Shown here one piece after another: positions 32,786 to 52,092 of a DNA stretch of 64,000 bases (its first letter is position 1; every line of letters starts with the position of its first letter). The translations under genes and the position numbers were made by a program. Source of the stretch: an uncultured Clostridium sp. (GTDB lineage Bacteria; Bacillota; Clostridia; TANB77; CAG-465); NCBI GenBank assembly GCA_900553785.1, contig USES01000003.1:53-64052 (forward strand), read 5' to 3'. Below the pieces are notes generated by a model. The model saw only the letters and a list, made by a program, of their open reading frames with translations, ran no database searches and was not told where the DNA came from.

Positions 32786-32833
32786 GGCCTATGCTTTGCA
32801 TACAGAAAATGTATGTAAGTCATAGGTCTTTTT
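32786..32833 (+). terminator. Terminator/attenuator-like hairpin between the leader ORF and the GLUG gene
   Basis: Outer stem GGCCTATG/CATAGGTC, inner stem GCATACA/TGTATGT, GAAAA loop, then CTTTTT. Confidence 0.5.
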
Positions 32834-32886
32834 GCGTTCTATTATCATGTGTTTGCAACCTTTATTTAAAAAGAAAGAGGAGGAAT

Positions 32887-35004
32887 ATGAAAATGATAAA
32901 GAAAAATGCAATTTCGCTTATTGTGTTGGTAATTACCATAATTATTATTACAATACTTGCTGCGACTGTAGTAGTTAGTATAAGCAATTCCAATATAATA
33001 AATAAGGCTAAAGATGCAGTAAATATGAATGATTTAAAACAAGTACAGGAATTTGCTAATCTTGAATGGAATAGTGCATATTTAGAGGGTGCACGTAGTA
33101 GAGTGGAATTGGAGAGTGCCGTTCTTAAAAAAATGAAAGAAAGTAACATAAATATGGATATGTATGATGTTACAGTAACAGAAAGCGGCGTACAAGTAAA
33201 ACAAGGGTATGGCTTGGAAATAAAAGAAGAAATTAGTATCACTACAAGTGATCAAATTTATGCCCTTGGAAGGATTCTAACTACAGATGATTTAAGAAAA
33301 GAATGCTATAAAAACTATGAAAGCGTAGACAAAGGCCTAGAGGCAGATTTAAGCTTATTTAGCTTTCCAGATACTATAGCTACAATTGATGAAAAGATAG
33401 AATATTTAACAACAACATCATATAAACTTGAAAATGATGTAGAGCTTAAATTATTGAAAAATGGTTATACTTCAAATTTAGCAATAGGGAGTAGCAATAG
33501 ACCATTTAAAGGTTATTTTAATGGAAATAACAAAACTATACTAATTACTGAATCAGGTACCAGCACTCGTGAAGGATTTGGAGGAATATTTGGATATGTA
33601 GAAAATGCTACAATATCTAATGTGAATATAAAGTTTGCATCTGATATAAATATGAGTGTTGGCATAAAAGATACATTAGGTGTAGGGGAACATTACATTG
33701 GCATGCTTGTATCAAGGATGAAAAATACAGTATTGTATAACAATAATATTATTATATCAGGTAAGTCTGTAAAATTTGTTTTTGATAATGCTTCGTTTAA
33801 AAGAAGTTTGCGAATCGGAGGAGTTGCAGGGCTTGTTGAAGGAAATTCTAAAATCAAAAAATGCTCGTTTATATTAGAAAATAACGCGCAAATTTTGATT
33901 TCTGATACAGCAGATGAAGATAATTATGACTTTGCTTTTGGCGGAATTGTAGCTAAATCTAAATTAGAAACCAACGAAAGAATGGAAATATCTGATTGTA
34001 ATGTAGACTTGTCTAATTCTAAAATAGAAGTTATATCTCCTAGATTGGGTTACTGTGCAGGTGTTATTGCAGACGCAATGTATACAACTATTAGAGATAC
34101 AAATGTTACTTTAAAGAATAGTACTATGGGTACTACTTCTGCAGGAGATGGTTATTCAACATTAACCTACTACTATTCTTTGATTACAGGAGGTTTAGTT
34201 GGTTTCGCACGTCATGGCTCTAATAATGAAAATGGACCTTATGGACTTGAGGGCGTAGTGGTAGAGGGTTGCTCATTTAATTCTACTAATGATACACAAA
34301 AAGAAGTGCTATTTTCAAAAATAAACAAGGGATACTCACCTAATGTAGGTGGAATAATTGGAATAGCATTCAATAATGCAGTTATAAAAGATACAAACGT
34401 AGGTATTACTAACGGCTCATTTGTTGCAGAAAAAACTGGAGAGGATAGTTACAATGGTCCTGGATCAACTTGTGGTGGAATTATAGGAAGATTAGAACAC
34501 ACCGGAGTTGTAAAAGGTTGTCAAGTTGTTGGAAATAACTTTAACATTTTGTCTAAATCAACTAAAAGAGAAATGTATGCAGGTGGTATTGTAGGAATAG
34601 ATATAGGACCTTATCATAAAAATGTAATATCGCTAGAAAATAATAAATTTATTGGCAATAATACTTCAAGTATAACTGTTGAACTTGTTAGCGGAAATGC
34701 TGAAAACAGGTATATATATGTTGGTGGAATAGCTGGTCAATCTACATATATAATGAAGAATTGTTTTGTATCAGGTGTTACATTATATCACAATGGTGTA
34801 AATACAGGAGCCAAACAAGCTGCCGTTGGAAAACTGGCAGGAAGATTTGTAAAGTATGCAACTGAAGGAACTTTAGGAACACACTTTACTCCAAGTGAAG
34901 ATATTGGAATTATTGGTTGTCAAACAGATAATGTGAATATAGTTATAAATGATAATAACAGCGGTATTGTACAACAAGGTGAAGAGTACGGTACTAATAA
35001 TTAA
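32887..35004 (+). CDS. Pilin-like N-terminal anchor fused to a GLUG-repeat (glycine-rich beta-helix-like) surface protein
   Basis: The ORF track starts at 32791. The ATG at 32887 (residue 33) follows AAGAGGAGGA. N-terminus MKMIKKNAISLIVLVITIIIITILAATVVV. At least 8 repeats of the type GGI(F/V/A/I)G...N(C/V): GGIFGYVENATISN, IGGVAGLVEGNSKI, FGGIVAKS, GGLVGFA, VGGIIGIAFNNAVI, CGGIIGRLEHTGVV, AGGIVGID, VGGIAGQSTYIMKNC. Confidence 0.6.
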   Translation: MKMIKKNAISLIVLVITIIIITILAATVVVSISNSNIINKAKDAVNMNDLKQVQEFANLEWNSAYLEGARSRVELESAVLKKMKESNINMDMYDVTVTESGVQVKQGYGLEIKEEISITTSDQIYALGRILTTDDLRKECYKNYESVDKGLEADLSLFSFPDTIATIDEKIEYLTTTSYKLENDVELKLLKNGYTSNLAIGSSNRPFKGYFNGNNKTILITESGTSTREGFGGIFGYVENATISNVNIKFASDINMSVGIKDTLGVGEHYIGMLVSRMKNTVLYNNNIIISGKSVKFVFDNASFKRSLRIGGVAGLVEGNSKIKKCSFILENNAQILISDTADEDNYDFAFGGIVAKSKLETNERMEISDCNVDLSNSKIEVISPRLGYCAGVIADAMYTTIRDTNVTLKNSTMGTTSAGDGYSTLTYYYSLITGGLVGFARHGSNNENGPYGLEGVVVEGCSFNSTNDTQKEVLFSKINKGYSPNVGGIIGIAFNNAVIKDTNVGITNGSFVAEKTGEDSYNGPGSTCGGIIGRLEHTGVVKGCQVVGNNFNILSKSTKREMYAGGIVGIDIGPYHKNVISLENNKFIGNNTSSITVELVSGNAENRYIYVGGIAGQSTYIMKNCFVSGVTLYHNGVNTGAKQAAVGKLAGRFVKYATEGTLGTHFTPSEDIGIIGCQTDNVNIVINDNNSGIVQQGEEYGTNN

Positions 35005-40496: not shown

Positions 40497-40508
40497 GAGG
40501 TGTTTGTT

Positions 40509-40919
40509 TTGACTGACGTTGTAATGAGTATAAAGCCAGTTCATGTTGCGAGGATAAAAAGCGGTGTGAAAAACCATGAGTTTAGGAAATATGTTCCAAG
40601 TAGAGGGGTGGACAGGCTATGGGTATACACGTCTTCTCCTGTTTGCGCATTAGAATATGTAGTAGGTATAGATAAAATAGTGGCGTATCCAGACAAAATA
40701 GTAGAAGAGGGGTATGGTAATACAGAGTTTAACATGGGAGAGAAAGAGGCACCTTATGCTTACCATATTAAGAGCTTATATAGACTTAAAAAGCCAATAC
40801 ATCTTGATGAGCTTCGAGAAAAGTATAAGTTCACGGCACCACAGAGTTTCTTTTATTTAGATAGCAATGTTAAGTTAAAGGAATATTTGGAAAGTGTGGA
40901 TGTAGAAAGGGTTATATAA
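40509..40919 (+). CDS. ASCH (PUA-like) domain protein
   Basis: SIKPVHVARIKSGVKNHEFRKY matches the ASCH N-terminal pattern. The start is ambiguous: TTG 40509 lies 8 nt after AGGAGG, with ATG 40524 and GTG 40500 as alternatives. Confidence 0.55.
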   Translation: MTDVVMSIKPVHVARIKSGVKNHEFRKYVPSRGVDRLWVYTSSPVCALEYVVGIDKIVAYPDKIVEEGYGNTEFNMGEKEAPYAYHIKSLYRLKKPIHLDELREKYKFTAPQSFFYLDSNVKLKEYLESVDVERVI

Positions 40920-41235
40920 AATGGAATGCAGAGAATATTTTTTACACTTATAACCAGACGAATTTAAATAATAAAATGCATAAAAGAAAGATATATCAAG
41001 TGAGAATAGGCTCTCTTGATATTTTTTATGAATAAAAAGGACGGTTAGACAGCGGAAAATGTTATTGCAAAATATGGAAAAAGTCGAAAATGTGGTATAA
41101 TTGACACAATAAAATAAGAATGGTTAAGGAGAGAAAAAATACTGGCATAAGAAATAAAAAATCATATTGCTCGTTGGACAAAAGAAAAAACATTTATAAA
41201 CAAAGTGAAGTTAAAAATTGAGAGGTTCACAAGAT

Positions 41236-41589
41236 ATGAAGAAAACAGTTAAATATTTATTAATTGTAACAAGCATTGCTCTAATAGTTATTAATATATA
41301 TGTAATAATTAATGCAGAGCAATTATTAAGCGATGATTTTACACTATTTAAAAAAATAATCCCAGAGATTCTTTTGAAAAGAAGATTGGAATTATTTGCA
41401 AAAGGTGGCGTAAGAGGTATTTGTGTTGGAGCAGGGTTTGCTATAGTTACAAGCATATTATCAATATACATGATTGCCAAAAATCAAATCAATAGTAGGA
41501 TAAAAATTGATTTTTTAATGTTTTTAACTTTATTTTCTTTTTTGTATCAAGAAACGTTTATGCCATTATTCTATTACTTATTAATTTAA
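41236..41589 (+). CDS. Hypothetical small membrane protein
   Basis: The ATG at 41236 (residue 7 of the ORF-track product) follows GAGAGG. Three or four hydrophobic helices. Confidence 0.4.
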   Translation: MKKTVKYLLIVTSIALIVINIYVIINAEQLLSDDFTLFKKIIPEILLKRRLELFAKGGVRGICVGAGFAIVTSILSIYMIAKNQINSRIKIDFLMFLTLFSFLYQETFMPLFYYLLI

Positions 41590-41722
41590 TATTACTTTTT
41601 TTACAAGAAAAAGAGTAATATGTGAGAATGAAGAATATATTGGAGAGATTCCAAAAATAAAGAGACTAAAGCCAACTATTAAAGAGATAATTTGTAGTAT
41701 CATATTAGTAATAATTTACTTT

Positions 41723-42313
41723 GTGTTTTATTTATATCAAGTAGGCTTTCCTGAAAGTGAAATTGAAAGAAAAATGTATATTATAATTGCAATAATTGTA
41801 ACATTTATTTGGGCGATTTTTTCTTTTAAAAGAGTATTAATAAGAGATAGTAAAATATTGTTTAAAAACTTTAAAGAGTATGGTAATTGTATTTTAAAAA
41901 CAGTAAAAAAATACATACTGTTTATTGTAATAATGTCAGTTGTTGCAATAACATTAACGAATCAAGTAACAAGTGTTAATCAAGAAGGCCTTGAGGAGAT
42001 GCCATTATTAAAAGTATTTATATTAGCGGTATTTTTTGCTCCTGTTGTTGAAGAAAATATTTTTAGAGGTACTTTAAGGTATTTTGTTAAAAATAAAATT
42101 GCATTTATAATAATATCAGGAATTATATTTGTTTTTTTACATGTCCTTTCTGAAGCCAATTTAATTAATGCGATATTAATGGCATCACAATATGTATTAA
42201 TTGGATGCATGCTGGCACATTTATATGTTAGGACTAATAATTTGGCAGTTAATATGTTTTTGCATATGCTAATAAATTCCTTAGGAGTAATTATGATGGC
42301 TATGTTTAGTTAA
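41723..42313 (+). CDS. CPBP family (CAAX/Abi-type) intramembrane glutamic endopeptidase
   Basis: EENIFRG (EExxxR) motif, FVFLHV (FxxxH) and HMLINS (HxxxN) motifs. The only start in frame is a GTG with no SD. The reading frame is open for a further 46 codons upstream. Confidence 0.65.
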   Translation: MFYLYQVGFPESEIERKMYIIIAIIVTFIWAIFSFKRVLIRDSKILFKNFKEYGNCILKTVKKYILFIVIMSVVAITLTNQVTSVNQEGLEEMPLLKVFILAVFFAPVVEENIFRGTLRYFVKNKIAFIIISGIIFVFLHVLSEANLINAILMASQYVLIGCMLAHLYVRTNNLAVNMFLHMLINSLGVIMMAMFS

Positions 42314-42519: not shown

Positions 42520-44859
42520 ATGCTAAGTTATAAAATTCAAAAACTATTGAATCAAAACAGATACATATCTAAAGCTGAAATGTATGCATATTTAGAACTT
42601 TGTGGACTAAAGACTAATGATGAACTTTGTATTTTATTAAATAAGCACAATGAAAAATATATAAAAGAAGAGTTAGATAAAAACAAAGAATATTTCGATC
42701 ATCTATATGATAATACCAACTCTAACGTTATTTTAGACGAAGAGCAAAGAAAAGCAATATTATTTGATGATAGTTATGCTTTAATTAACGCTGGTGCGGG
42801 CTCTGGGAAAAGTACTACAATTGCAGCAAAAGCAAAATATTTAGTAGATAAAAAAGGTGTGTTGCCAGAGGAAATTTGTATGTTATCATATACTAAAACT
42901 TCAGCAGATGATTTAGGAGAAAAGGTTTCTGAACTTGTTGGGGACAAAGTAAATGTTGCAACATTTCATTCACTTGGTATGAATATTCTAAGAAATCTGT
43001 ATGATTATCCAGTTAAGGTGGCATCAGAAACTATACAAAACGAAATAATAACACAGTACATTATAGATAAATTTAGAGATAAGAATGAAATTAAAAAGAT
43101 ATTGGATGCATTTCCACCACTTGAACACGGCAAAGATTATCCTGCGACATATTTCTTTTTTAAAGGATTTGTAAACAATTATGATAAATTTGATACGTTT
43201 GAGGAATATTTTGCAGATTATAAAAAGAGAAAATTTGAAAAAGAAAGTAAAAGAACTGGTGGAATAAAGGAATACATAAAATTTAGAGCAGCATCAAACA
43301 TGGAAAATATGAAAGATTTGCTAGGGAAAAAGTGTAAATCAATTGGTGAGGTTAAAATTTCAAATTATCTTTACGCAAACGGTTTAAATTATACTTATGA
43401 AGAAATGTTGGAAGAAAAAGTAGACGAGGGAAAATCCTATTCGCCAGATTTTGCGGTGTATGTGAATGGCAAGAAAATATATATTGAGTATTTCGGATTA
43501 TCTGGATGTTATAAAAACGGTGAAGAAATACCAAAAAAGATTATGCAGTATAACAAGGTTAGAAAGAAAAAAGAAAATTTTCAAAAGGTACATCCTGAAT
43601 ATAAATATATAAATTTAGACTACAGAAAAGAGAAAAATGGAGAAATTATATATTACTTAGATGATTTAAAATTACAGTTAGAGAGCCTTGGAATTAAATT
43701 AAAACCATTAGATGAAAAATATATTTTTAACGATATAATGGAACAAAATTTGAGTTCGGAGTTTTTCTTTTTTGTAAGCTTGATGGTAAAATTTGTGATG
43801 ACTGTAAAAGATATGTTATCAGATGATACTGATGCTTTATTTGAAGAAGTAAAGAAGAAAATAGATAAGGACAAGGTATATTTTAACTATTACAGTACAG
43901 ATGCTAAAGAAGAAAAAGAAAAAAGAAAGCAAGCAATTGATGTGCTAAAGGATATATATAATTATTATGAGGAATATCTTGTTAAAAATCATATGATAGA
44001 TTATTCTGATATGATAAATAAAACGTATAAGTATATTAGGACAAGTAGATGTAACGGGTACAAATTTAAGTATGTTATAGTTGATGAATATCAAGATATT
44101 ACATATCAAAGATACTTGTTTGTTAAGGCATTGGTAGATTATTATAATGCAAAATTGGTTTCTGTTGGAGATGATTGGCAATCTATATATTCTTTTCAAG
44201 GAGCAAAAGTGGATTTGTTTACAAGGTTTAATGATTATTTTGAAGATGCTAATAATACTCTTATGCTTAGTAATACACATAGATATTCGCAGGAACTTGC
44301 AGATATAACTTCAAAATTTGTTCAAAATAACAAGAAATTGAGCCGAAAAAAATTACTGTCAAATAAGCATATGGATAATCCGGTTGAGATAGTAAAGTTT
44401 GAAAAGGTATGTCAAGAATTTGAGATTATACAGGGATTAATTAAAAAATTATATACCGAAAATCCAAATAAAGAAATACTCTTGCTTGCAAGGAGAAACA
44501 GAGATATAGCAGATTTATTTGATAGTGGATTGTTTAAAAGTGGTGTAGATGATGAAGTACTTGTTAAAGAAGTACCAGACGCTAGGGTTAGGATACTTAC
44601 TATGCATAGTTCGAAGGGCGTTACGGCAGATCAAGTTATAATATATAGACTACATGAGAGAATATTTCCATCAAAGGGGTTGAAATCTCATTGGATATTC
44701 AATTATTTTAAAACGGATACTTTGGATAGAAATTCCAAAAGAGAAGAAGAGGCAAGACTTTTTTATGTTGCACTAACAAGGACAAGAACAAAAGTATATT
44801 TAGTTGTGCCAAACGGTGAGAGTGCAACGAGCTTTGTTAAAGAACTGGAAATCAAATAG
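42520..44859 (+). CDS. UvrD/Rep-family SF1 helicase (helicase IV-like) with an embedded PD-(D/E)xK-like nuclease module
   Basis: Motif I NAGAGSGKST, motif II VDEYQDI, motif III VGDDWQSIYSFQGA, motif V/VI TMHSSKGVTADQV and FYVALTRTRTKV. Between motifs Ia and II lies an insert of about 60 aa: IGEVKISNYLYANGLNYTYE...YSPDFAVYVNGKKIYIEYFG. Confidence 0.75.
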   Translation: MLSYKIQKLLNQNRYISKAEMYAYLELCGLKTNDELCILLNKHNEKYIKEELDKNKEYFDHLYDNTNSNVILDEEQRKAILFDDSYALINAGAGSGKSTTIAAKAKYLVDKKGVLPEEICMLSYTKTSADDLGEKVSELVGDKVNVATFHSLGMNILRNLYDYPVKVASETIQNEIITQYIIDKFRDKNEIKKILDAFPPLEHGKDYPATYFFFKGFVNNYDKFDTFEEYFADYKKRKFEKESKRTGGIKEYIKFRAASNMENMKDLLGKKCKSIGEVKISNYLYANGLNYTYEEMLEEKVDEGKSYSPDFAVYVNGKKIYIEYFGLSGCYKNGEEIPKKIMQYNKVRKKKENFQKVHPEYKYINLDYRKEKNGEIIYYLDDLKLQLESLGIKLKPLDEKYIFNDIMEQNLSSEFFFFVSLMVKFVMTVKDMLSDDTDALFEEVKKKIDKDKVYFNYYSTDAKEEKEKRKQAIDVLKDIYNYYEEYLVKNHMIDYSDMINKTYKYIRTSRCNGYKFKYVIVDEYQDITYQRYLFVKALVDYYNAKLVSVGDDWQSIYSFQGAKVDLFTRFNDYFEDANNTLMLSNTHRYSQELADITSKFVQNNKKLSRKKLLSNKHMDNPVEIVKFEKVCQEFEIIQGLIKKLYTENPNKEILLLARRNRDIADLFDSGLFKSGVDDEVLVKEVPDARVRILTMHSSKGVTADQVIIYRLHERIFPSKGLKSHWIFNYFKTDTLDRNSKREEEARLFYVALTRTRTKVYLVVPNGESATSFVKELEIK

Positions 44860-44961: not shown

Positions 44962-45894
44962 ATGTTAGGAGATAAAATTAAGTCATATAGAGAAAATAAA
45001 AAAATGACTCAAAACGATATTGCAGATGTATTAGATGTTAGTGCTGGTACAGTTTCAAAATATGAATCAGGTGCTTTAGAACCCAGTATTGAATCATTAA
45101 AAAGATTATCAAAATTATTTGGAATATCAATTGATGAATTATTAAATGACGCCAAAGAAAAATTTGATATTTCAAAAATAAATATATTAGACACACTTAG
45201 AGAACAAAAAGAGATGAAATTAAAAGGAAATTTATATCATCAAACGCAGGTTTCATTTGCATATAATACAAATCACATAGAGGGAAATACATTAACAGAA
45301 GATCAAACAAGATACATTTTTGAAACAAATACTATTTTATTTGAAAGTGATACAATTGCAAAAGTGGATGATATATTAGAAACATCTAATCACTTTAAAT
45401 TAGTTGATTATATGCTAGATGTAGCAGATAAAAAATTAACTGAAAAAATGATAAAGGAGTTTCATGAGATTTTGAAAGATGGGACTTCTGATAGTAGAGT
45501 CGAATGGTTCAATGTTGGAGAATACAAACAAAGATCTAATACAATAGGAAGTGGAGTTAAAACAACATCACCAAATAATGTTGAAAAAGATATGTTAAAG
45601 CTAGTGGATTGGTATAATACACTTAAACAAATAACTATAAAAGAAATAATTGAATTTCATTATAGATTTGAGAGTATACATCCGTTTCAAGATGGTAATG
45701 GCAGAATAGGAAGAATAATTATGTTTAAAGAATGTTTAAAGAATAATATTGTTCCGTTTATTATACAAGATGCAGATAAATTATTTTATTATAGAGGATT
45801 GAAAGAATACAAAAGTGAAAAGGGATATTTAACTGATACATGTTTAAATGCACAAGATCAGTACATTAAGCTGATAGAATATTATTTGAAATAA
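44962..45894 (+). CDS. XRE-type HTH domain fused to a Fic (AMPylase-type) domain
   Basis: N-terminal HTH (MTQNDIADVLDVSAGTVSKYESG). Fic motif HPFQDGNGRIGR. An upstream TNHIEGN matches the (S/T)xxxE(G/N) auto-inhibitory helix. Confidence 0.85.
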   Translation: MLGDKIKSYRENKKMTQNDIADVLDVSAGTVSKYESGALEPSIESLKRLSKLFGISIDELLNDAKEKFDISKINILDTLREQKEMKLKGNLYHQTQVSFAYNTNHIEGNTLTEDQTRYIFETNTILFESDTIAKVDDILETSNHFKLVDYMLDVADKKLTEKMIKEFHEILKDGTSDSRVEWFNVGEYKQRSNTIGSGVKTTSPNNVEKDMLKLVDWYNTLKQITIKEIIEFHYRFESIHPFQDGNGRIGRIIMFKECLKNNIVPFIIQDADKLFYYRGLKEYKSEKGYLTDTCLNAQDQYIKLIEYYLK

Positions 45895-46358: not shown

Positions 46359-46389
46359 TTGACGAAAACTAAAAAAGTTGTGTTATAAT
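46359..46389 (+). promoter_or_regulatory. Promoter of the 1669-aa protein operon
   Basis: Extended -10 TGTTATAAT, with TTGACG 19 nt upstream. Confidence 0.5.
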
Positions 46390-46417
46390 ATAATAGAAAG
46401 AAAAAGAAGGAAAAAAG

Positions 46418-46528
46418 ATGGAATTTGAAAAAGATACAGAAAAAGAAGAATATGAAGTTTTAAGAGGCCTTAATGATAGGCTTAGAAACTTTAATAAAGA
46501 TAAGCAAAAAGAGGATGATGCAAGATAG
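46418..46528 (+). CDS. Small charged peptide (36 aa, MEFEKDTEKEEYEVLRGLNDRLRNFNKDKQKEDDAR)
   Basis: Hand-translated and below the ORF-track cutoff. SD AAGAAGGAAAAAAG. Ends 25 nt before the giant ORF. Confidence 0.3.
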   Translation: MEFEKDTEKEEYEVLRGLNDRLRNFNKDKQKEDDAR

Positions 46529-46553
46529 AATTAAAATAAATTGAGGTAAATAT

Positions 46554-49500
46554 ATGACAAAAGAACAAATTAAGTTTTTTATTGATAATCAAACAACTAT
46601 ATTTGATGAAATAGGCAAAAGAATAGAGGAATCAGAACAAGGTGCTGAGTTATTAAATAATGATATATCTGTAGAAAATATTAAAAGTTTATATGATGAG
46701 TATTATAAATATTGCCCTGATATTTTTGATAAATATGATTTAGATTATGATGCTTTTAAAGTAATTCTTTCGATTTCTGAAGGAGACAAATCCTTTAGAG
46801 AAGAAGTATTAGGAAGAGACGAAGCAAATCAATTACTTAGAGATGTTATTGATATATATGGTGATGAGGCATACAACATATTAGGTTGTAATTCTTACGG
46901 CTTTGAAATGTCTGAAATAGATGGAATATTATCAGGGGGAAATAATAAAAAATATGAAGAGTTTTATACGAAATTACTAACTCAAAAATGTGAAAAAGCT
47001 TATAATCTCGAGCAGCTTTCGAACATTTTATTAAATACAAAATCAGAATATATCAATCAAGGTCTAATTGAAAGTTTTTTGAAAAGCCCTGACAAAATAA
47101 TTTCTGATTTTGAAATAAAAGAATTTATTGATTCGGCGCCTGCTACTATTACGGATGGTTCATCCTTAAAATTATTGGTAGATAGGGTAGAGTCTATTAA
47201 TTCTAATGCATCAATACTAGAACGAATCCCACCAGAGTTATTTGATGAGCAATTTTCTAAAAGATTGTTAGAGAAATCTACATATGCTTTTACTGATGTA
47301 TTTAAATTGATTCCAGAAAAATCTAAAAGTAAAGATATATGGGAATTGGCCATATCTAAAGATAATTTCTTAGTTTCATCTTTACCTGATAAAAAAATAG
47401 ACGAAAATATGACAGATGAAGAGTATGCTAAATGGAGTGAAAATTTAGTTAAAGATGTGATAAAACGCAATCCGGATAATATTCAGGAGTTGTTTTCTGA
47501 ATTAAAAGATTCACAAAAAACTTTAGAAGTTTGTAGTGAAGGCTCAAAATTATTGAAATCAGATGGATATCATGTTCAGGACTTTTTAGAGAAAATTCCA
47601 GAATCAAGCCGTAGTAGACAGATTTATGAAACATTGTTAGGAAAATCTGAGTATATTATTAGTCATATTCCAACGGTTTCTTTTGAAGATGGACTTTCAC
47701 AAGAAGAATATAACATTTGGGTAGATGATGTAATAGTAAATAAGATTTCTCAAATGCAAGACACAGATAATTTGAATATAAGAATACCTAAAGAGAGAAT
47801 GACTGAAAGAGTTTGGAATGCGGTACTTGATAAATGTAATGAGACAAATGGAGATAAAAGCTATTTTGGACTCTCATCTGTTCCAGTTCAAAATATAACT
47901 ATTGAGATGTGTGAACGTGCACTAAAAGATATCAGTGATCTTCAAATAAAGGACATTCCATCAATAGATAGAAAAATTTATACAATCACTGACGAGGCAA
48001 CTAGAGGAGAATATGAAGAATGGATTTCAGGTTTTTCAGAAAAAGAAAAGGAATCATATAGAGAATGGTATGAAAGAAAAGTTATAGACTTCATAAAAGA
48101 AAGACAGGCAAATGTATTTGTAGATAAATTTGAAAATAGAAGAAGCCATATAGCAATTCCGCCAGAAGCTATAAGTGTTAATATTATAAATGCTTATTTA
48201 CAAGTAAATGGACCTTCTGGAATAGAGCATATTCCAGTTCCGAACGATATCACCAATTACAATGAACAATATGAAGATATTATTGTTTCGGCAATTGGTA
48301 TGTTAGAAGAAAAAAAGTATTTGGGTAGGAGAGGACCAGGTCAAGCATTAGTTGATAACTGGGATATTCTAGATAAAATTCCGAAAGAGTACAGAACAGA
48401 TAAAGTTGTATTGGAGGCAATAAAAAAGCATCCTAAATATTTAGACTATGCTGACTTTGAAAATGAAAACTTTGATAAACTTTTACAAATTGGATATAAG
48501 AATAAATTAGAAAGTATTGGAAGAACTGAACTATATGAATCAGAAATAGAGTTGATGAAGAAATTTGCTAAAAATAATTCTAGTTTGTTTTCAACACTAA
48601 ATTTAGATATTCTTAATCCGGATATTATAAATAGTATTGGTGAAAAAAATTTAGAAAGAATAGTAAGGTATAGTGATGTACAGCATTCAATAATAGAACT
48701 AGCCAAAGATAAGGATGCGTTGGCTACATTTGGTTTTGCATTGGAAAATTTAAAGCAAGATAATTTATTTATTGAACCTTTAATAGAAAAATTAAGTAAT
48801 TCAATTGTAAGAGAAGAAGTCTCAGTATATAATTCTGAAAAACAAGAGTATGAAACTAAGTCTAAAGAGTTCCTTAAATTAGCTTCTAATAGAATACAAG
48901 ATAAATCACGATTTTTAACGGAAGAGGAAAAAACTGTACTTACTTACTTAGCTATAAATCCTCAAGAAGCAAATAAAATTCAAAGTTATGATGACATATT
49001 AAACTTTGTAGTAAATAAAAATGCCGAATTGGATGGAGTTATAAATTCTAAAAATTCAACTTTGGTAGATGTAAAAGATGCATATCTTCAAAGAACAGTT
49101 GGAATGGACTATTCAAGTGCAGTTGATTTGGTAACAAAATACGGAAATGATCCGGAGAGTTTGTTAGCAAAATATGAAGGAAAAGAGTTAGAAACATATA
49201 AAGAAAAAGCGGAAAAAGAATCTTTGGAAATTGTTATTAAACTAAAATCGCTAATTCAAGAAAATGATTTAAATAAAATTCAAAAGGCGTATTTTGAGTC
49301 AGTTGAGAAAGAAGATAAAACAAAATCATTCGAAAGGTATAAATGTGTTACTACGTTAGATAATGCACTAAGAAGGTCATATGGTAGAGATATTACTAGA
49401 ACTTTAAGTGAACATGACAGGGAAAACAATGTGGAACTAGTTGAACGTACTGAAGATGGTCAAGAGTATTTAGTAAGAAAAGTGAATGGACCGTTTAATA

Positions 49501-51563
49501 GAATGATAAGTGTTATGAACGCATATAGAAAAAGTGATGAGAAAGTCGCTGGAACAGACATGTATGACAGGTGGAATACATCAGCAATGGCTGGCAATCA
49601 TGCTTTATGTTATAGCTTTATAAATGAAACAAATCCGGGAACGGCACTGCTTGGAGATAAAAAAGGCGTAGTTATATCTATAAGTGGATTTGATGCTGAG
49701 GCAGTAACTGCCGCTGCGCCATATGATTTGTGTTCTGATTCAAGGATGAATACAACTGTAACATACAGACAACAAAGATTTTACACTTCTAATAATTTAC
49801 CAGATCAAACAAGAGGCAGGTATTCTGAAGTTGATATAGAAATACAAGACGTTTCGGACGGAGGAGTCGAATATAAAAAGATACAACCATCGAGTATAAT
49901 TTGTTTTGAGGAAGTTGATGAAGATAGCATAAAGGCATCAATAGAGTTAAGCAAGAAACTTGGTAGAACTGTACCTATTGAATTGATAGATAGAAGAGAA
50001 TTAGCAAGTAAAACAAAGCAAGAAATAGATGATTTGTTTAATGAATTTAAAAACGGGGAAAGTTTGCAACCAGAACTTATAGGACAAATAATAACTAAAT
50101 TCAATAATGTTAGAAATGCTCATATGGATTCTAGTTTAGCAGATGAGCTATTAGGAGAAAATAGTGAAAAAGAGAATGCAGATGCTATGTTTAATAAATC
50201 TCATTTAAATAAAATTACTTCAGAATGTGTAGAAATTGCTAAACAAAGAATAGAAAAGGGCGAAGTTCAAGAGGGTTTACAAACAATATCACAAATTAAG
50301 CAATACATAAGAAAAGAGCGAGAAAAAAATGTGTTGATGCCAACAATGTATGAAAAGCAAATCATGGCAGGAATTGATTTGGATGTAGATTATCGTATAG
50401 ATGAAATACAAAGAATGTATGGTAGACAAGAAATAACAAAAGCTAAGACAAGAAATACGACTCTTGAAATAATGCAAGAGAGTCACGAACTAGAATCTTC
50501 TACTTATGAAACGGTGTATGGAAATAGTAAATTTATGCCTGAACAATTATCATTTTCTGAATTGCAAAACAATATAGATATTTCAGAAATATGCAATACT
50601 GTCCAAGAAATACATCAAAAAGGTTATTATAATGAAAACAAAGAATATTCAGAAGAGTATATAGCAAGAGTTGCAACGTTTTCTAGTGCTATTGCAAATT
50701 TAGAGAATGCTGATGATAGAACAAAAAAATTGTTGCAAGAAGCGGTAAAATATCATTCTAGCGGAAGAAAACTTGATACTACAAGAGAAAAACATCAAGC
50801 ATATAGCGCAAAAATTGCAGGACAAGAACTAAGTGAGAAATATTCAAAAACAGATATAGGTATAATACAGGCTGCAATAGAGTTACAGGATTTAAATTAC
50901 TCTTCATCTGTATCAAAAGAAATGGAAAGAGAGAGAAAAGAAAAAGTTGTACAATTATGTGAAAAATATGAATTAGATATAGATAACGGAGAAAAAATTG
51001 ATTGCATAGCAAAATATATAGAAGATGGAGTTAATTTAGATAAAGCTAGATTTGTGCCAAAAGTTAATAATACACCAGGGGAAAAATTTTCATTTGACTC
51101 TTTAAAAACGGATTCTGCTAGAAAACTTGTAAAAGCTAGTTATTGTATACATGATGAATTATCAGCAGAACATTTAAAAGAAATGTCTAAAGTAGCGGCT
51201 ATTGATTTTAAAGAAAAAACAGATGATATTATGAAAGAATTTTTCACAGAAAGGACGCTCGTATCAGAAAAAACAATATTTGATGAAAGTATTATAGAAT
51301 CTTCTATTGTTAGAGAAGCATATCTAAAGCATAGATTTCAAGAAATAGATTTTGAAAATTTAACAGAAGTATTACCAAAACAAGAAAAAACTAATTTGTC
51401 ACAGGATTTGCCTATTGCAAGTAGTTGTATAGAAGATGCTAGAAAAATTGCCGAATCAAGTCTTGCTAGAGATGTAAGAAAAACAAGTCAAGAAGTAGAG
51501 GCAGGATACATTGAGATGGGAAATTTAAATAAAAGTAGAGAATCTACAAAAGAACTATTTTAA
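46554..51563 (+). CDS. Giant orphan protein (1669 aa): DUF4116-like IP..E repeats, a central unknown globular block, and a C-terminal degenerate HD-like region
   Basis: SD TGAGGT. No signal peptide, TM or P-loop seen. At least 6 repeats of the type IP(E/K)xxx(S/T)xx(I/V)xxxA(I/V)...IP between about residues 220 and 640. The C-terminal EYIARVATFSSAIANL...LLQEAVKYHSSGRK...KHQAYSAKIAGQEL resembles the HD-domain pattern, with the catalytic H and D replaced. Confidence 0.7.
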   Translation: MTKEQIKFFIDNQTTIFDEIGKRIEESEQGAELLNNDISVENIKSLYDEYYKYCPDIFDKYDLDYDAFKVILSISEGDKSFREEVLGRDEANQLLRDVIDIYGDEAYNILGCNSYGFEMSEIDGILSGGNNKKYEEFYTKLLTQKCEKAYNLEQLSNILLNTKSEYINQGLIESFLKSPDKIISDFEIKEFIDSAPATITDGSSLKLLVDRVESINSNASILERIPPELFDEQFSKRLLEKSTYAFTDVFKLIPEKSKSKDIWELAISKDNFLVSSLPDKKIDENMTDEEYAKWSENLVKDVIKRNPDNIQELFSELKDSQKTLEVCSEGSKLLKSDGYHVQDFLEKIPESSRSRQIYETLLGKSEYIISHIPTVSFEDGLSQEEYNIWVDDVIVNKISQMQDTDNLNIRIPKERMTERVWNAVLDKCNETNGDKSYFGLSSVPVQNITIEMCERALKDISDLQIKDIPSIDRKIYTITDEATRGEYEEWISGFSEKEKESYREWYERKVIDFIKERQANVFVDKFENRRSHIAIPPEAISVNIINAYLQVNGPSGIEHIPVPNDITNYNEQYEDIIVSAIGMLEEKKYLGRRGPGQALVDNWDILDKIPKEYRTDKVVLEAIKKHPKYLDYADFENENFDKLLQIGYKNKLESIGRTELYESEIELMKKFAKNNSSLFSTLNLDILNPDIINSIGEKNLERIVRYSDVQHSIIELAKDKDALATFGFALENLKQDNLFIEPLIEKLSNSIVREEVSVYNSEKQEYETKSKEFLKLASNRIQDKSRFLTEEEKTVLTYLAINPQEANKIQSYDDILNFVVNKNAELDGVINSKNSTLVDVKDAYLQRTVGMDYSSAVDLVTKYGNDPESLLAKYEGKELETYKEKAEKESLEIVIKLKSLIQENDLNKIQKAYFESVEKEDKTKSFERYKCVTTLDNALRRSYGRDITRTLSEHDRENNVELVERTEDGQEYLVRKVNGPFNRMISVMNAYRKSDEKVAGTDMYDRWNTSAMAGNHALCYSFINETNPGTALLGDKKGVVISISGFDAEAVTAAAPYDLCSDSRMNTTVTYRQQRFYTSNNLPDQTRGRYSEVDIEIQDVSDGGVEYKKIQPSSIICFEEVDEDSIKASIELSKKLGRTVPIELIDRRELASKTKQEIDDLFNEFKNGESLQPELIGQIITKFNNVRNAHMDSSLADELLGENSEKENADAMFNKSHLNKITSECVEIAKQRIEKGEVQEGLQTISQIKQYIRKEREKNVLMPTMYEKQIMAGIDLDVDYRIDEIQRMYGRQEITKAKTRNTTLEIMQESHELESSTYETVYGNSKFMPEQLSFSELQNNIDISEICNTVQEIHQKGYYNENKEYSEEYIARVATFSSAIANLENADDRTKKLLQEAVKYHSSGRKLDTTREKHQAYSAKIAGQELSEKYSKTDIGIIQAAIELQDLNYSSSVSKEMERERKEKVVQLCEKYELDIDNGEKIDCIAKYIEDGVNLDKARFVPKVNNTPGEKFSFDSLKTDSARKLVKASYCIHDELSAEHLKEMSKVAAIDFKEKTDDIMKEFFTERTLVSEKTIFDESIIESSIVREAYLKHRFQEIDFENLTEVLPKQEKTNLSQDLPIASSCIEDARKIAESSLARDVRKTSQEVEAGYIEMGNLNKSRESTKELF

Positions 51564-51577
51564 AAAGGAGGATTAAT

Positions 51578-52027
51578 TTGGTTACAAATGAATTTGCTGA
51601 AGCATCAGCAGAATTAGTTGAAATATTAAATTATTTGCCTAGATCTGAAGTTGAAAAAATACCATTAAATCTAAGGAACTTTTTTGAAAAAGCAGCAAGT
51701 CCAAATTACAGTGTAAAAATTGATCCGTATAAGCCTTTAGGTCAACAGAGAATTAAGGAGAAAACTAAAGATTTAATTGCTGTTATATATAGGAATTATT
51801 GGTGTAATGGAGATGAAAAAAAGGAACTGGATAAAAAGTTAATTGAAAATGATAAAAAGTATGAAGAGATACTTCATGAGCAGTGTAGTCCAGATAATAT
51901 GTTTAAAAATAAAACTAATCAAGAGATATGTACAACTCAAACAACGCAGGAACTAGTAGAATATAGGCCGCAGAATTTTATACAAAAATTATTTACTAAA
52001 ATTAAAAGCCTATTTAATAAAAAATAA
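51578..52027 (+). CDS. Hypothetical protein (149 aa), downstream partner of the giant protein
   Basis: TTG start after AAAGGAGGA, 14 nt after the giant ORF stop. Soluble, with no recognised motif. Confidence 0.5.
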   Translation: MVTNEFAEASAELVEILNYLPRSEVEKIPLNLRNFFEKAASPNYSVKIDPYKPLGQQRIKEKTKDLIAVIYRNYWCNGDEKKELDKKLIENDKKYEEILHEQCSPDNMFKNKTNQEICTTQTTQELVEYRPQNFIQKLFTKIKSLFNKK

Positions 52028-52061
52028 TGAAGAATGTAACATTTAAAGTTATATTACACAT

Positions 52062-52092
52062 AAAAAACCTAGCAGGTGACTGCTAGGTTTAG
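52062..52092. terminator. Bidirectional terminator between the giant-protein operon and clpE
   Basis: Stem AAACCTAGCAG/CTGCTAGGTTT with a GTGA loop, flanked by A-runs and T-runs. Confidence 0.7.

Follow-up and report, generated by a model that had tools for sequence, protein, structure and literature searches.

Within a 64,000-nucleotide (nt) stretch of contig USES01000003.1 from an uncultured Clostridium sp. (GCA_900553785.1), the whole of which we call the window, we analyzed a three-gene operon at positions 46359-52092 that an initial annotation, made from the letters alone, had proposed to be an accessory conflict-type system. The three genes (the triad) lie on the plus strand and encode, in order, a charged peptide of 36 amino acids (aa; 46418..46528, ATG start), a 1669-aa protein that we refer to as the giant (46554..51563, ATG start), and a 149-aa protein (51578..52027, TTG start). 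The gaps between them are 25 nt (peptide to giant) and 14 nt (giant to 149-aa gene), and Shine-Dalgarno (SD)-like sites, GAAGGA, GAGGT, and AGGAGG in gene order, precede the three starts. This layout of three open reading frames (ORFs) on one strand, with its coordinates, gaps, and SD sites, was confirmed from the sequence.

The promoter assigned to the unit fared less clearly. Both boxes can be read from the plus strand at 46359..46389, with a -35 element TTGACG at 46359-46364 and an extended -10 element TGTTATAAT at 46381-46389, but they are separated by a 19-nt spacer, because of which the site is missing from the list produced by our consensus scan. Moreover, promoter-like sites occur in this AT-rich stretch at chance level (34 found versus 37.6 expected from shuffles), so the operon promoter is plausible and does not in itself constitute evidence. 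Terminator-like sites were found above chance (5 versus 1.0 expected in shuffles), and the bidirectional hairpin said to close the unit was recovered by the terminator scan on both strands at 52065..52090, between the operon and a convergent Clp ATPase gene. It has an 11-bp stem with 5 GC pairs and a 4-nt loop and is preceded by an A-tract on the plus strand, although its T-run is better on the minus strand, i.e., it serves the convergent Clp gene more than the operon. A scan of the 520-nt leader for noncoding RNAs and riboswitches gave no Rfam match, and the GC content of the operon did not differ from that of its flanks.

The giant and its small partners

Scanning of the giant's translation revealed no transmembrane segment, no Walker A motif, and no LPXTG motif; the hydropathy profile, which peaks at a Kyte-Doolittle value of 1.14 over 19 residues, and the Walker A scan agree with the earlier statement that the protein lacks membrane segments and a P-loop. 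Its net charge is -87. Searches against Pfam, NCBIfam, PADLOC, PHROGs, and PDB sequences returned nothing for the giant except a sub-threshold DUF4116 match, and no confident match to a housekeeping family came up by profile or, for the modeled residues 850-1669, by structure. In the same five resources and Foldseek, no described counterpart of the triad was found, as the initial annotation had supposed. Its description of the giant as an orphan holds to the extent that no described family matches, but homologues do exist. In a search of 5.8 billion proteins, full-length relatives at 53-96% identity fell into 29 clusters, all of them unnamed and metagenomic, and 20 giant loci at 39-68% identity were found among the 185,579 species genomes of GTDB that were scanned; their hosts are gut metagenome-assembled genomes (MAGs) of uncultured Clostridia, Bacilli, or Erysipelotrichaceae. 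When residues 940-1669 served as the query of an exhaustive profile search, a superfamily of 336 representatives emerged at E ≤ 1e-3 (207 at E ≤ 1e-10), mostly 1000-3200 aa long, which share the central and C-terminal regions and come from gut metagenomes or MAGs. None of 10 superfamily clusters checked carried a functional name, the single named member being a 'hypothetical protein'.

The distribution of the peptide across loci shows it to be the giant's obligate private partner, encoded immediately upstream of it save in a lineage in which the giant is split. Charged residues make up 58% of the peptide, which bears the motif EY-x-x-L-x-x-LN-x-(K/R)-L-x-x-F-(N/K)-K and ends in Arg. At 31 loci, among them those of a distant clade whose giants are about 40% identical, a hidden Markov model (HMM) of the peptide matched the ORF that immediately precedes the giant, and it matched nothing else across 126 loci. 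It precedes every giant for which upstream DNA was examined, except in the split-giant lineage (L028/L034-L038); in the distant clade it is 62-79 aa long and ends 3 nt before the start codon of the giant. The exceptional lineage, 'Clostridium sp. UMGS1640', lacks the peptide and has the giant divided into three ORFs of 1333, 148, and 137 aa (L028 9995-14932; L034-L038 2039-6985), identically in at least 5 independent samples; either the copy is decaying or this is a natural split form of the protein. The peptide had no family match in Pfam, NCBIfam, PADLOC, or PHROGs and contains no helix-turn-helix (HTH), ribbon-helix-helix, or AbrB motif. In two independent MAGs, it is fused to a homologue of the 149-aa protein as a single 197-aa ORF (L013 6771-7364; L014 265-858), which suggests that the two small proteins act together. 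Across all lengths and clades, every peptide homologue terminates in Arg (…DDAR, …EEER, …TIRR).

The 149-aa protein belongs to a family of at least 2505 proteins. It gave no match in Pfam, NCBIfam, PHROG, or PDB, and in PADLOC it matched only PDC-M02B, at an E value of 0.007 and 13 bits. It consists of a conserved N-terminal domain and a C-terminal amphipathic stretch, with the hydrophobic moment highest in the last 18 residues. Within the clade of the window giant, a homologue always adjoins the giant or the peptide, in two gene orders and one fusion type: the gene lies downstream of the giant in the window, L003, L008, L025, L028, and L125 and upstream of the peptide in L001-L018 and L045. 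The distant clade has no 149-aa gene and keeps the peptide, and only 1 of 80 metagenomic loci retrieved with 149-aa proteins of one subtype (A, see below) contains a giant. By this distribution, the 149-aa protein is optional and not specific to the giant. The view of the three genes as a real, recurrent unit thus stands, with the peptide found at 31 loci and the 149-aa homologue adjacent in the window clade; the 149-aa family as a whole occurs mostly without giants.

What the 149-aa family does travel with, as comparison of gene neighborhoods shows, is proteins bearing a matching C-terminal tail. The neighbors of A-type genes share tail A, F[ST]EQEIGK[AST]T[IV]N..T..KD.A......DEQ, on proteins of 71-1672 aa. 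At least one tail-A ORF lies within 6 kb in 27 of the 35 A-type loci with enough flanking sequence, and all 45 such ORFs are on the same strand, with none further away. In total, 23 distinct tail-bearing proteins adjoin A-type 149-aa genes, in arrays of up to five tail-bearing genes after one gene of the 149-aa type. Besides the giant, these mutually unrelated clients include a protein resembling HopA1, one with GH10+PHP, and one of 497 aa that weakly matches LRR_EndoS in Pfam; no signal peptide was seen in tail-A clients. A tail-A profile search of the 5.8-billion-protein database returned short ORF fragments only, its word index favoring short proteins, and is uninformative as a client census. 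Two kinds of neighbor could point to the destination of the tail-bearing proteins. In four flanking contexts (L072, L087, L103, L107, and related loci), the gene immediately before the 149-aa/tail module encodes an orthologous half-transporter of the ABC exporter type (532-607 aa), and, beside another 149-aa module (L080 6586-8469), there is a MerR-HTH fused to a VirD4/TraG-like coupling protein.

Two further features of A-type loci were seen in passing. The 497-aa client has, by eye, a transglutaminase-like Cys/His motif in its C-terminal half. In addition, short ORFs 5' of the A-type 149-aa gene at L040 6457-7000 (also in L039, L041-L044, and L053) resemble decayed remnants of a giant-like gene; one remnant of this type ends in '...FNIPIVNIDR', matching the end of the central domain described below, and another bears tail A.

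In the window, the giant ends in a different tail of about 50 aa, tail B (…LPIASSCIEDARKIAESSLARDVRKTSQEVEAGYIEM…; 51408..51560, plus strand), identified with its own HMM and having the consensus IAESRIARNV.KTSQEV..GY.E. Tail type and partner go together: giants with an A-subtype gene upstream of the peptide carry tail A, giants with a window-type (W-subtype) gene downstream carry tail B, and giants without a 149-aa gene carry neither. The tail-B HMM matched only giants with a window-type gene directly downstream (window, L003, L125/126, L008/9, L028, and L034-38). In the phylogeny of giant bodies, the W-type giants of the window, L003, and L125 branch from among A-type bodies, with 73-77% identity to the A-type giant of L010; the window giant is 73% identical to that protein, 57% to the W-type giant of L008, and 42% to that of L028. 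The upstream A gene was thus lost, the 3' tail replaced, and the downstream W gene gained in concert, and such a joint switch is what an interaction between tail and partner predicts. AlphaFold2 modeled tail B as a low-confidence helix. Homology between tails A and B was considered and rejected (hhalign probability 0.2%). The idea that a 474-aa protein of L008, whose N terminus looks by eye like that of the 497-aa tail-A protein of L040, carries a B-like tail was also set aside, as the tail-B HMM matches giants only and a likeness by eye was not counted.

Domain architecture of the giant

Conservation in the giant is highest at residues ~975-1190, where conservation profiles and AlphaFold2 delimit an alpha/beta central domain (residues 975-1190; 49476..50123, plus strand). 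In an alignment of 37 diverse superfamily sequences, C1019, D1058, R1087, and E1092 are near-invariant, and the motifs AYG, WN, NHxxCxS, GF, APYDL, TRxx[HY][NS]ExxxE, and QPxxI stand out. With this alignment, AlphaFold2 modeled the domain at a mean per-residue confidence (pLDDT) of 88 and a predicted template modeling score (pTM) of 0.84; an earlier model of residues 850-1669 from close homologues only had left it below a pLDDT of 50 and gave, in Foldseek, helical-repeat noise and weak hints of HD and phosphodiesterase (PDE) folds only. No Pfam family recurred across the 37 central domains, even at E ≤ 10, and neither a profile search of PDB sequences nor a viral fold search of BFVD with the central domain produced a match.

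The only recurrent fold match of the central domain was CteC, an R-S-E mono-ADP-ribosyltransferase (mART) with an essential D134 (PMC10810742). We took a Foldseek E value of ≤1e-3 or a template modeling (TM) score of ≥0.5 to a solved ADP-ribosyltransferase (ART) as the mark of an ART fold; nothing in PDB was returned at E ≤ 1e-3, and the top three hits, all chains of CteC (8ux2), were weak and below significance (E 0.058-0.12, probability 0.66-0.84, TM score 0.36-0.40). The spacing of S1021-D1058-E1092 resembles that of S97-D134-E220 in CteC once the CteC insertion domain is removed. The domain differs from the ARTC class in that the superfamily does not conserve the beta-1 Arg (most clades have M, L, I, or K in place of R983), that H1016 is not invariant, that E1092, though near-invariant, sits in E-x-x-x-E and not in ExE, and that the near-invariant Cys has no ART counterpart. 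A divergent ART-like enzyme is accordingly a lead suggested by the model, and a doubtful one. Three other assignments were tried and rejected: a Cys-His protease or deamidase, as no His is conserved in the window clade (TRGRYSE versus TRHTHNE); a PD-(D/E)xK nuclease, as the (D/E)xK lysine is missing from the alignment; and a cytidine deaminase, as the order of motifs is wrong.

Some genes near giants may fit ADP-ribose chemistry or may be there by chance. NUDIX hydrolase genes recur among the neighbors (4 of 125), and an ADP-ribosylglycohydrolase gene lies about 6 kb from a superfamily member; these sites are L003 5318-5857 and 15681-17258, L031 5921-6385, and L032 18460-19398.

Toward the C terminus, the giant contains a degenerate HD-fold domain with a core at residues ~1360-1505 (50631..51068, plus strand), which AlphaFold2 modeled as all-helical with a pLDDT of 80-95. 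The window giant itself has no Pfam HD match, but 9 of 30 sampled distant superfamily members match Pfam HD (PF01966), at best with 8e-9, over the region aligned to the giant, and Foldseek of the region gave weak matches to PDE and GppA HD folds (probability up to 0.94, E > 0.1). By this route through the superfamily, the domain is homologous to true HD phosphohydrolase domains. One distant member, P0047, keeps an intact H...HD...H...D set ('YHDSGR', 'DLHD'), whereas the window clade reads 'KYYSSGR' and 'IELQ'. Compared with HD phosphohydrolases, the window giant retains H1401, H1414, and D1496 as ligands but has Y1369 in place of the first His, S1402 at the Asp position of the 'HD' dyad, and an invariant Q1445 where another His would be. 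Since its metal ligands are degenerate, the domain has probably lost catalysis and is probably not a metal-dependent hydrolase. At L033 4042-14915, the central domain occurs twice in a 3240-aa superfamily member that lacks an HD domain; a 42-aa ORF comes next, and then a gene of its own for a 283-aa HD protein. The separate HD gene beside this giant argues that the central and HD domains work together.

The N-terminal ~940 residues (46554..49373, plus strand) carry DUF4116-like repeats, at least six of which (IP-x-E...W/Y..A[IL]) were read from the translation at residues ~253, 348, 410, 443, 535, and 609 and confirmed in part by a regular expression. The Pfam match to DUF4116 (PF13475) covers residues 603-636 at an E value of 8e-4 and 19.4 bits, under the gathering cut-off of 24.9. 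Precomputed DUF4116 matches exist on the homologue P0006, with a faint one on the L125 giant, and 1 of 30 distant superfamily members matched at 2.9e-4.

Neighboring genes and mobility

The neighbors named in the initial annotation, an HTH-Fic protein, a UvrD-type helicase, a two-component module, and a Clp gene, were found as described by Pfam and PADLOC matches. The HTH-Fic gene (44962-45894) matches PADLOC PDC-S04 (E 3e-107). Upstream of it, the UvrD/helicase-IV-like protein (42520-44859) is covered by a 271-position Pfam model over residues 72-574; that the model spans 503 residues implies an insertion of about 230 residues in the helicase. Its best NCBIfam score is to 'DNA helicase IV', far below the cut-off, and it also scores against PADLOC GajB models. 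At the 3' end of the helicase gene (44719-44813, plus strand), there is a sub-threshold Rfam match to RF03531, 'Clostridioides difficile sRNA included into helicase gene' (37.5 bits versus a gathering score of 65.2, E 0.0045). Further upstream, an EVE-like 139-aa protein (40500-40919) matches PDC-M11B (E 4e-18), and the next genes, at 41218-42313, encode a hydrophobic protein of 123 aa and a CAAX/Rce1-like protease; the EVE-like and CAAX genes may be another small cassette in the island. The island is flanked upstream by a Bce-type ABC module with a two-component system and downstream by Clp, ScpB, and AddB. Elsewhere in the window, the ORFs at 32791-35004 (737 aa), 59103-59576 (157 aa), and 59708-60868 (386 aa) have no Pfam match at E ≤ 1e-5.

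Homologues of the window HTH-Fic gene at ≥90% identity occur elsewhere downstream of a histidine kinase, in a variable hotspot whose other genes include ApeA (ApeA_NTD1), an SLFN-g3 helicase, AAA_15/21, MazG-like, HNH_2, and HsdM, and never with the triad. Judged by these contexts, the window site is a strain-variable defense hotspot in which the triad is one separable cassette, and the helicase and Fic genes are independent cassettes and not parts of the triad system. The 90% cluster of this HTH-Fic protein has 516 members. In 7 of the 8 loci examined from other genomes (L127-L134), the Fic gene is followed by a 308-aa protein of an unnamed family, absent from the window, and in L132 there is a 136-aa ORF.

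The flanks of giant loci vary, and the insertion site differs in nearly every lineage. HTH_36 and Mob_Pre genes lie directly upstream of the module in L001, L002, and L045, and serine recombinases and tyrosine integrases recur near arrays of 149-aa genes. The peptide gene has Abi_2 a short way upstream in two loci, L003, where nothing intervenes, and L125, where one 72-aa ORF lies between; nSTAND3 with Cas3, and UvrD-PDDEXK with a methylase, are found downstream. Altogether, defense-type neighbors were found in only 3 of 16 lineages (the window, L003, and L125); most of the 125 neighbors at the 16 dereplicated loci are housekeeping genes. An aggregated neighborhood scan for defense enrichment found no conserved neighbor, and several of its PADLOC matches were housekeeping homologues, e.g., PolA. 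Around 40.0-52.4 kb of the window, a search for att-like direct repeats found only short AT-rich chance repeats. A phage or plasmid origin of the triad was considered and rejected: tblastn gave no match in PLSDB or INPHARED for the giant or an A-type 149-aa protein, and pattern scans of IMG/VR were also blank. Taken together, the contexts suggest that the cassette is self-contained and horizontally mobile.

Possible functions and relation to known systems

We favor the interpretation that the operon is a separable accessory conflict cassette whose role in the window is an abortive-infection-type defense against phages or other mobile elements, a reading that heads our ranking and to which we nonetheless give somewhat less than an even chance. 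In such a defense, the product would be a complex built around the 1669-aa cytoplasmic protein. The 149-aa protein would be an adaptor or regulator that docks on the C-terminal tail of the giant, and the peptide would bind the giant as an inhibitor or assembly factor. The central domain, with C1019, D1058, R1087, and E1092, would be the catalytic effector, possibly an NAD-using ART-like one; the HD domain would be structural or regulatory after the loss of catalysis in this clade, and the DUF4116-like repeats would act as a scaffold for binding or sensing. Until a trigger arrives, the enzyme would be held silent by its small partners.

Several results weigh against this interpretation. No triad component matches any PADLOC, Pfam, NCBIfam, or PHROG model. 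About 10 of the 16 dereplicated giant loci have housekeeping neighbors only, and most of the 125 neighbors at these loci are housekeeping genes, none of them conserved. The giant and 149-aa families are missing from the curated plasmid, phage, and viral-contig collections searched, so the case for mobility comes from metagenomic contexts only. The ART lead is weak (E 0.06, TM score 0.36-0.40), and the classical R-S-E or H-Y-E residues of ARTs are not conserved in the central domain. Finally, tails A and B have no detectable similarity (hhalign, as above), which makes it an extrapolation to carry the evidence from tail A over to the window, and tail B lies only 14 nt from the W gene, so that co-inheritance in the window type could reflect plain linkage. 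The initial proposal of a conflict system is thus upheld as to a recurrent, accessory, and separable unit, while the conflict function itself is circumstantial.

The arrays of unrelated enzymes sharing one tail, with up to five tail genes per gene of the 149-aa type, can also be explained by delivery. The tail would then be an export or transfer signal and the 149-aa protein an adaptor or chaperone leading to an ABC exporter, as in type I secretion systems (T1SS), or to the coupling protein of a conjugative type IV secretion system (T4SS); the giant would act in a rival, recipient, or host, with the peptide as inhibitor or immunity protein. Consistent with this are the clients without signal peptides, among them a GH10 glycosidase and a HopA1-like effector domain, the exporter upstream in four contexts and the MerR-fused VirD4/TraG-like protein in another, the Mob_Pre relaxase directly upstream in several loci, the strong acidity of the giant (-87), which is like that of T1SS substrates, and the analogy with XVIPCD-VirD4 recognition (PMC8740702). 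Near the window operon, however, there is no exporter or T4SS gene, the ABC/FtsX pair in the window being a Bce-type module with its own two-component system; exporters and coupling proteins adjoin a minority of loci; the window tail B occurs on giants only; and giants that lack both the 149-aa gene and the tails keep the peptide, so that delivery cannot be essential to giant function. We regard delivery as unlikely, although it ranks next after defense. 

An addiction module comes third and appears distinctly unlikely. Here the giant would be a toxin that stabilizes a mobile element, and the labile peptide, with or without the 149-aa protein, its antitoxin, which would fit a small, acidic, charged gene placed tightly against or abutting the upstream end of a large enzyme gene, the strict co-occurrence of peptide and giant, the carriage of the module by small Mob_Pre elements holding little else, and the L028/L034 lineage, where the peptide is gone and the giant is in three ORFs (in at least 5 samples), as expected if a toxin needs its antitoxin. 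Yet the giant, at 1669 aa with a repeat scaffold of ~940 aa, is far larger than known type II toxins, a DNA-binding domain is missing from the peptide, and no toxin-antitoxin family was matched in Pfam, NCBIfam, or PADLOC; moreover, addiction and defense are not mutually exclusive. An ordinary cellular protein, i.e., a lineage-specific housekeeping or developmental scaffold (sporulation, envelope, or cytoskeleton) with two small subunits, ranks last of the four and seems very improbable. Housekeeping neighbors at many loci, a GC content equal to that of the flanks, a degenerate HD domain, and a catalytic function that is only predicted would all agree with it; the patchy distribution (20 of 185,579 species genomes), the insertion sites that change with lineage and include Mob_Pre elements and defense islands, sister genomes with the same hotspot but without the triad, pseudogenized or split copies, and the exchange of tails and partners as modules speak against it. 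The remaining probability goes to something else.

A bolder proposal, which we consider quite unlikely and place between delivery and addiction in plausibility, is that the 149-aa family and its cognate tails form a new protein-targeting system of gut Firmicutes. The adaptor would read a ~40-aa C-terminal address on unrelated enzymes of mobilizable elements and direct them to ABC export, conjugative transfer, or a shared regulatory complex, with the giant as the largest client, a two-step NAD-dependent modifying enzyme (ART-like plus HD/PDE-type, loosely SidE-like) held in check by the peptide.

The peptide, central domain, 149-aa protein, and tail belong to no described family, and yet their genes number in the hundreds to thousands across the gut metagenomes of humans and animals. 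If the pairing of tail and adaptor is real, the tail would be a searchable tag for a class of mobile-element cargo in uncultured Firmicutes and would point to a possible mode of regulating or routing it; if the central domain is ART-like, it would be a new catalytic family in conflict biology. The cassette, at ~5.7 kb, self-contained, and with a putative promoter and terminator, is directly clonable and testable.

Among known systems, the layout recalls XVIPCD, the C-terminal domain of Xanthomonas and Stenotrophomonas T4SS effectors that is recognized by VirD4 (PMC8740702, PMC6759196). In both, unrelated enzymes end in one conserved region for which a conserved partner serves as the reader (a candidate reader in the present case), their genes form clusters, and N-terminal signal peptides are lacking; here, a C-terminal region shared by unrelated proteins holds true for tail A and, for tail B, among giants only. 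XVIPCD differs in being ~120 aa, folded, and read directly by the coupling protein, whereas the tail here is ~40-50 aa and its candidate reader a ~150-aa protein. The hosts of the giants are Gram-positive, no T4SS lies beside the window operon, and there is no variable immunity gene in a 1:1 pairing; the likeness is one of layout. Linkage to transporters is absent from the window island and present in a minority of other 149-aa loci. Secretion adaptors, such as Eag, DUF4123, and DUF2169 of type VI secretion systems, the Lap proteins of LXG toxins in type VIIb secretion systems (T7SSb), and IcmS-IcmW of Legionella, similarly place a small conserved protein, specific for a shared region, beside polymorphic effectors; they bind N-terminal or internal regions and stand beside recognizable secretion genes, and none of them matched the triad. 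In polymorphic toxins (LXG, contact-dependent inhibition [CDI], Rhs, and MuF), a constant trafficking domain at the N terminus precedes a variable C-terminal toxin, and a cognate, variable immunity gene lies downstream; here, the constant element is C-terminal and the adjacent small protein is conserved. No LXG, Rhs, MuF, or other trafficking-domain match was found in the giant or the clients.

Modular defense systems (Lamassu, Avs, retrons, and CBASS) share with the triad a constant partner combined with interchangeable effectors, a location in islands or on mobilizable elements, and large cytoplasmic multi-domain proteins. The triad differs from them in having no NTPase, SMC, reverse transcriptase, or cyclase and no PADLOC model, and in its association with defense islands in only 3 of 16 lineages. 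The giant itself recalls SidE, which combines mART and phosphodiesterase domains, by joining a putative ART-like domain with an HD/PDE-type fold, although the domain order is reversed in the giant and its HD ligands are degenerate in the window clade. By analogy, the triad would work most like effectors that share a recognition region and have a conserved reader, or like defense systems with swappable effectors.

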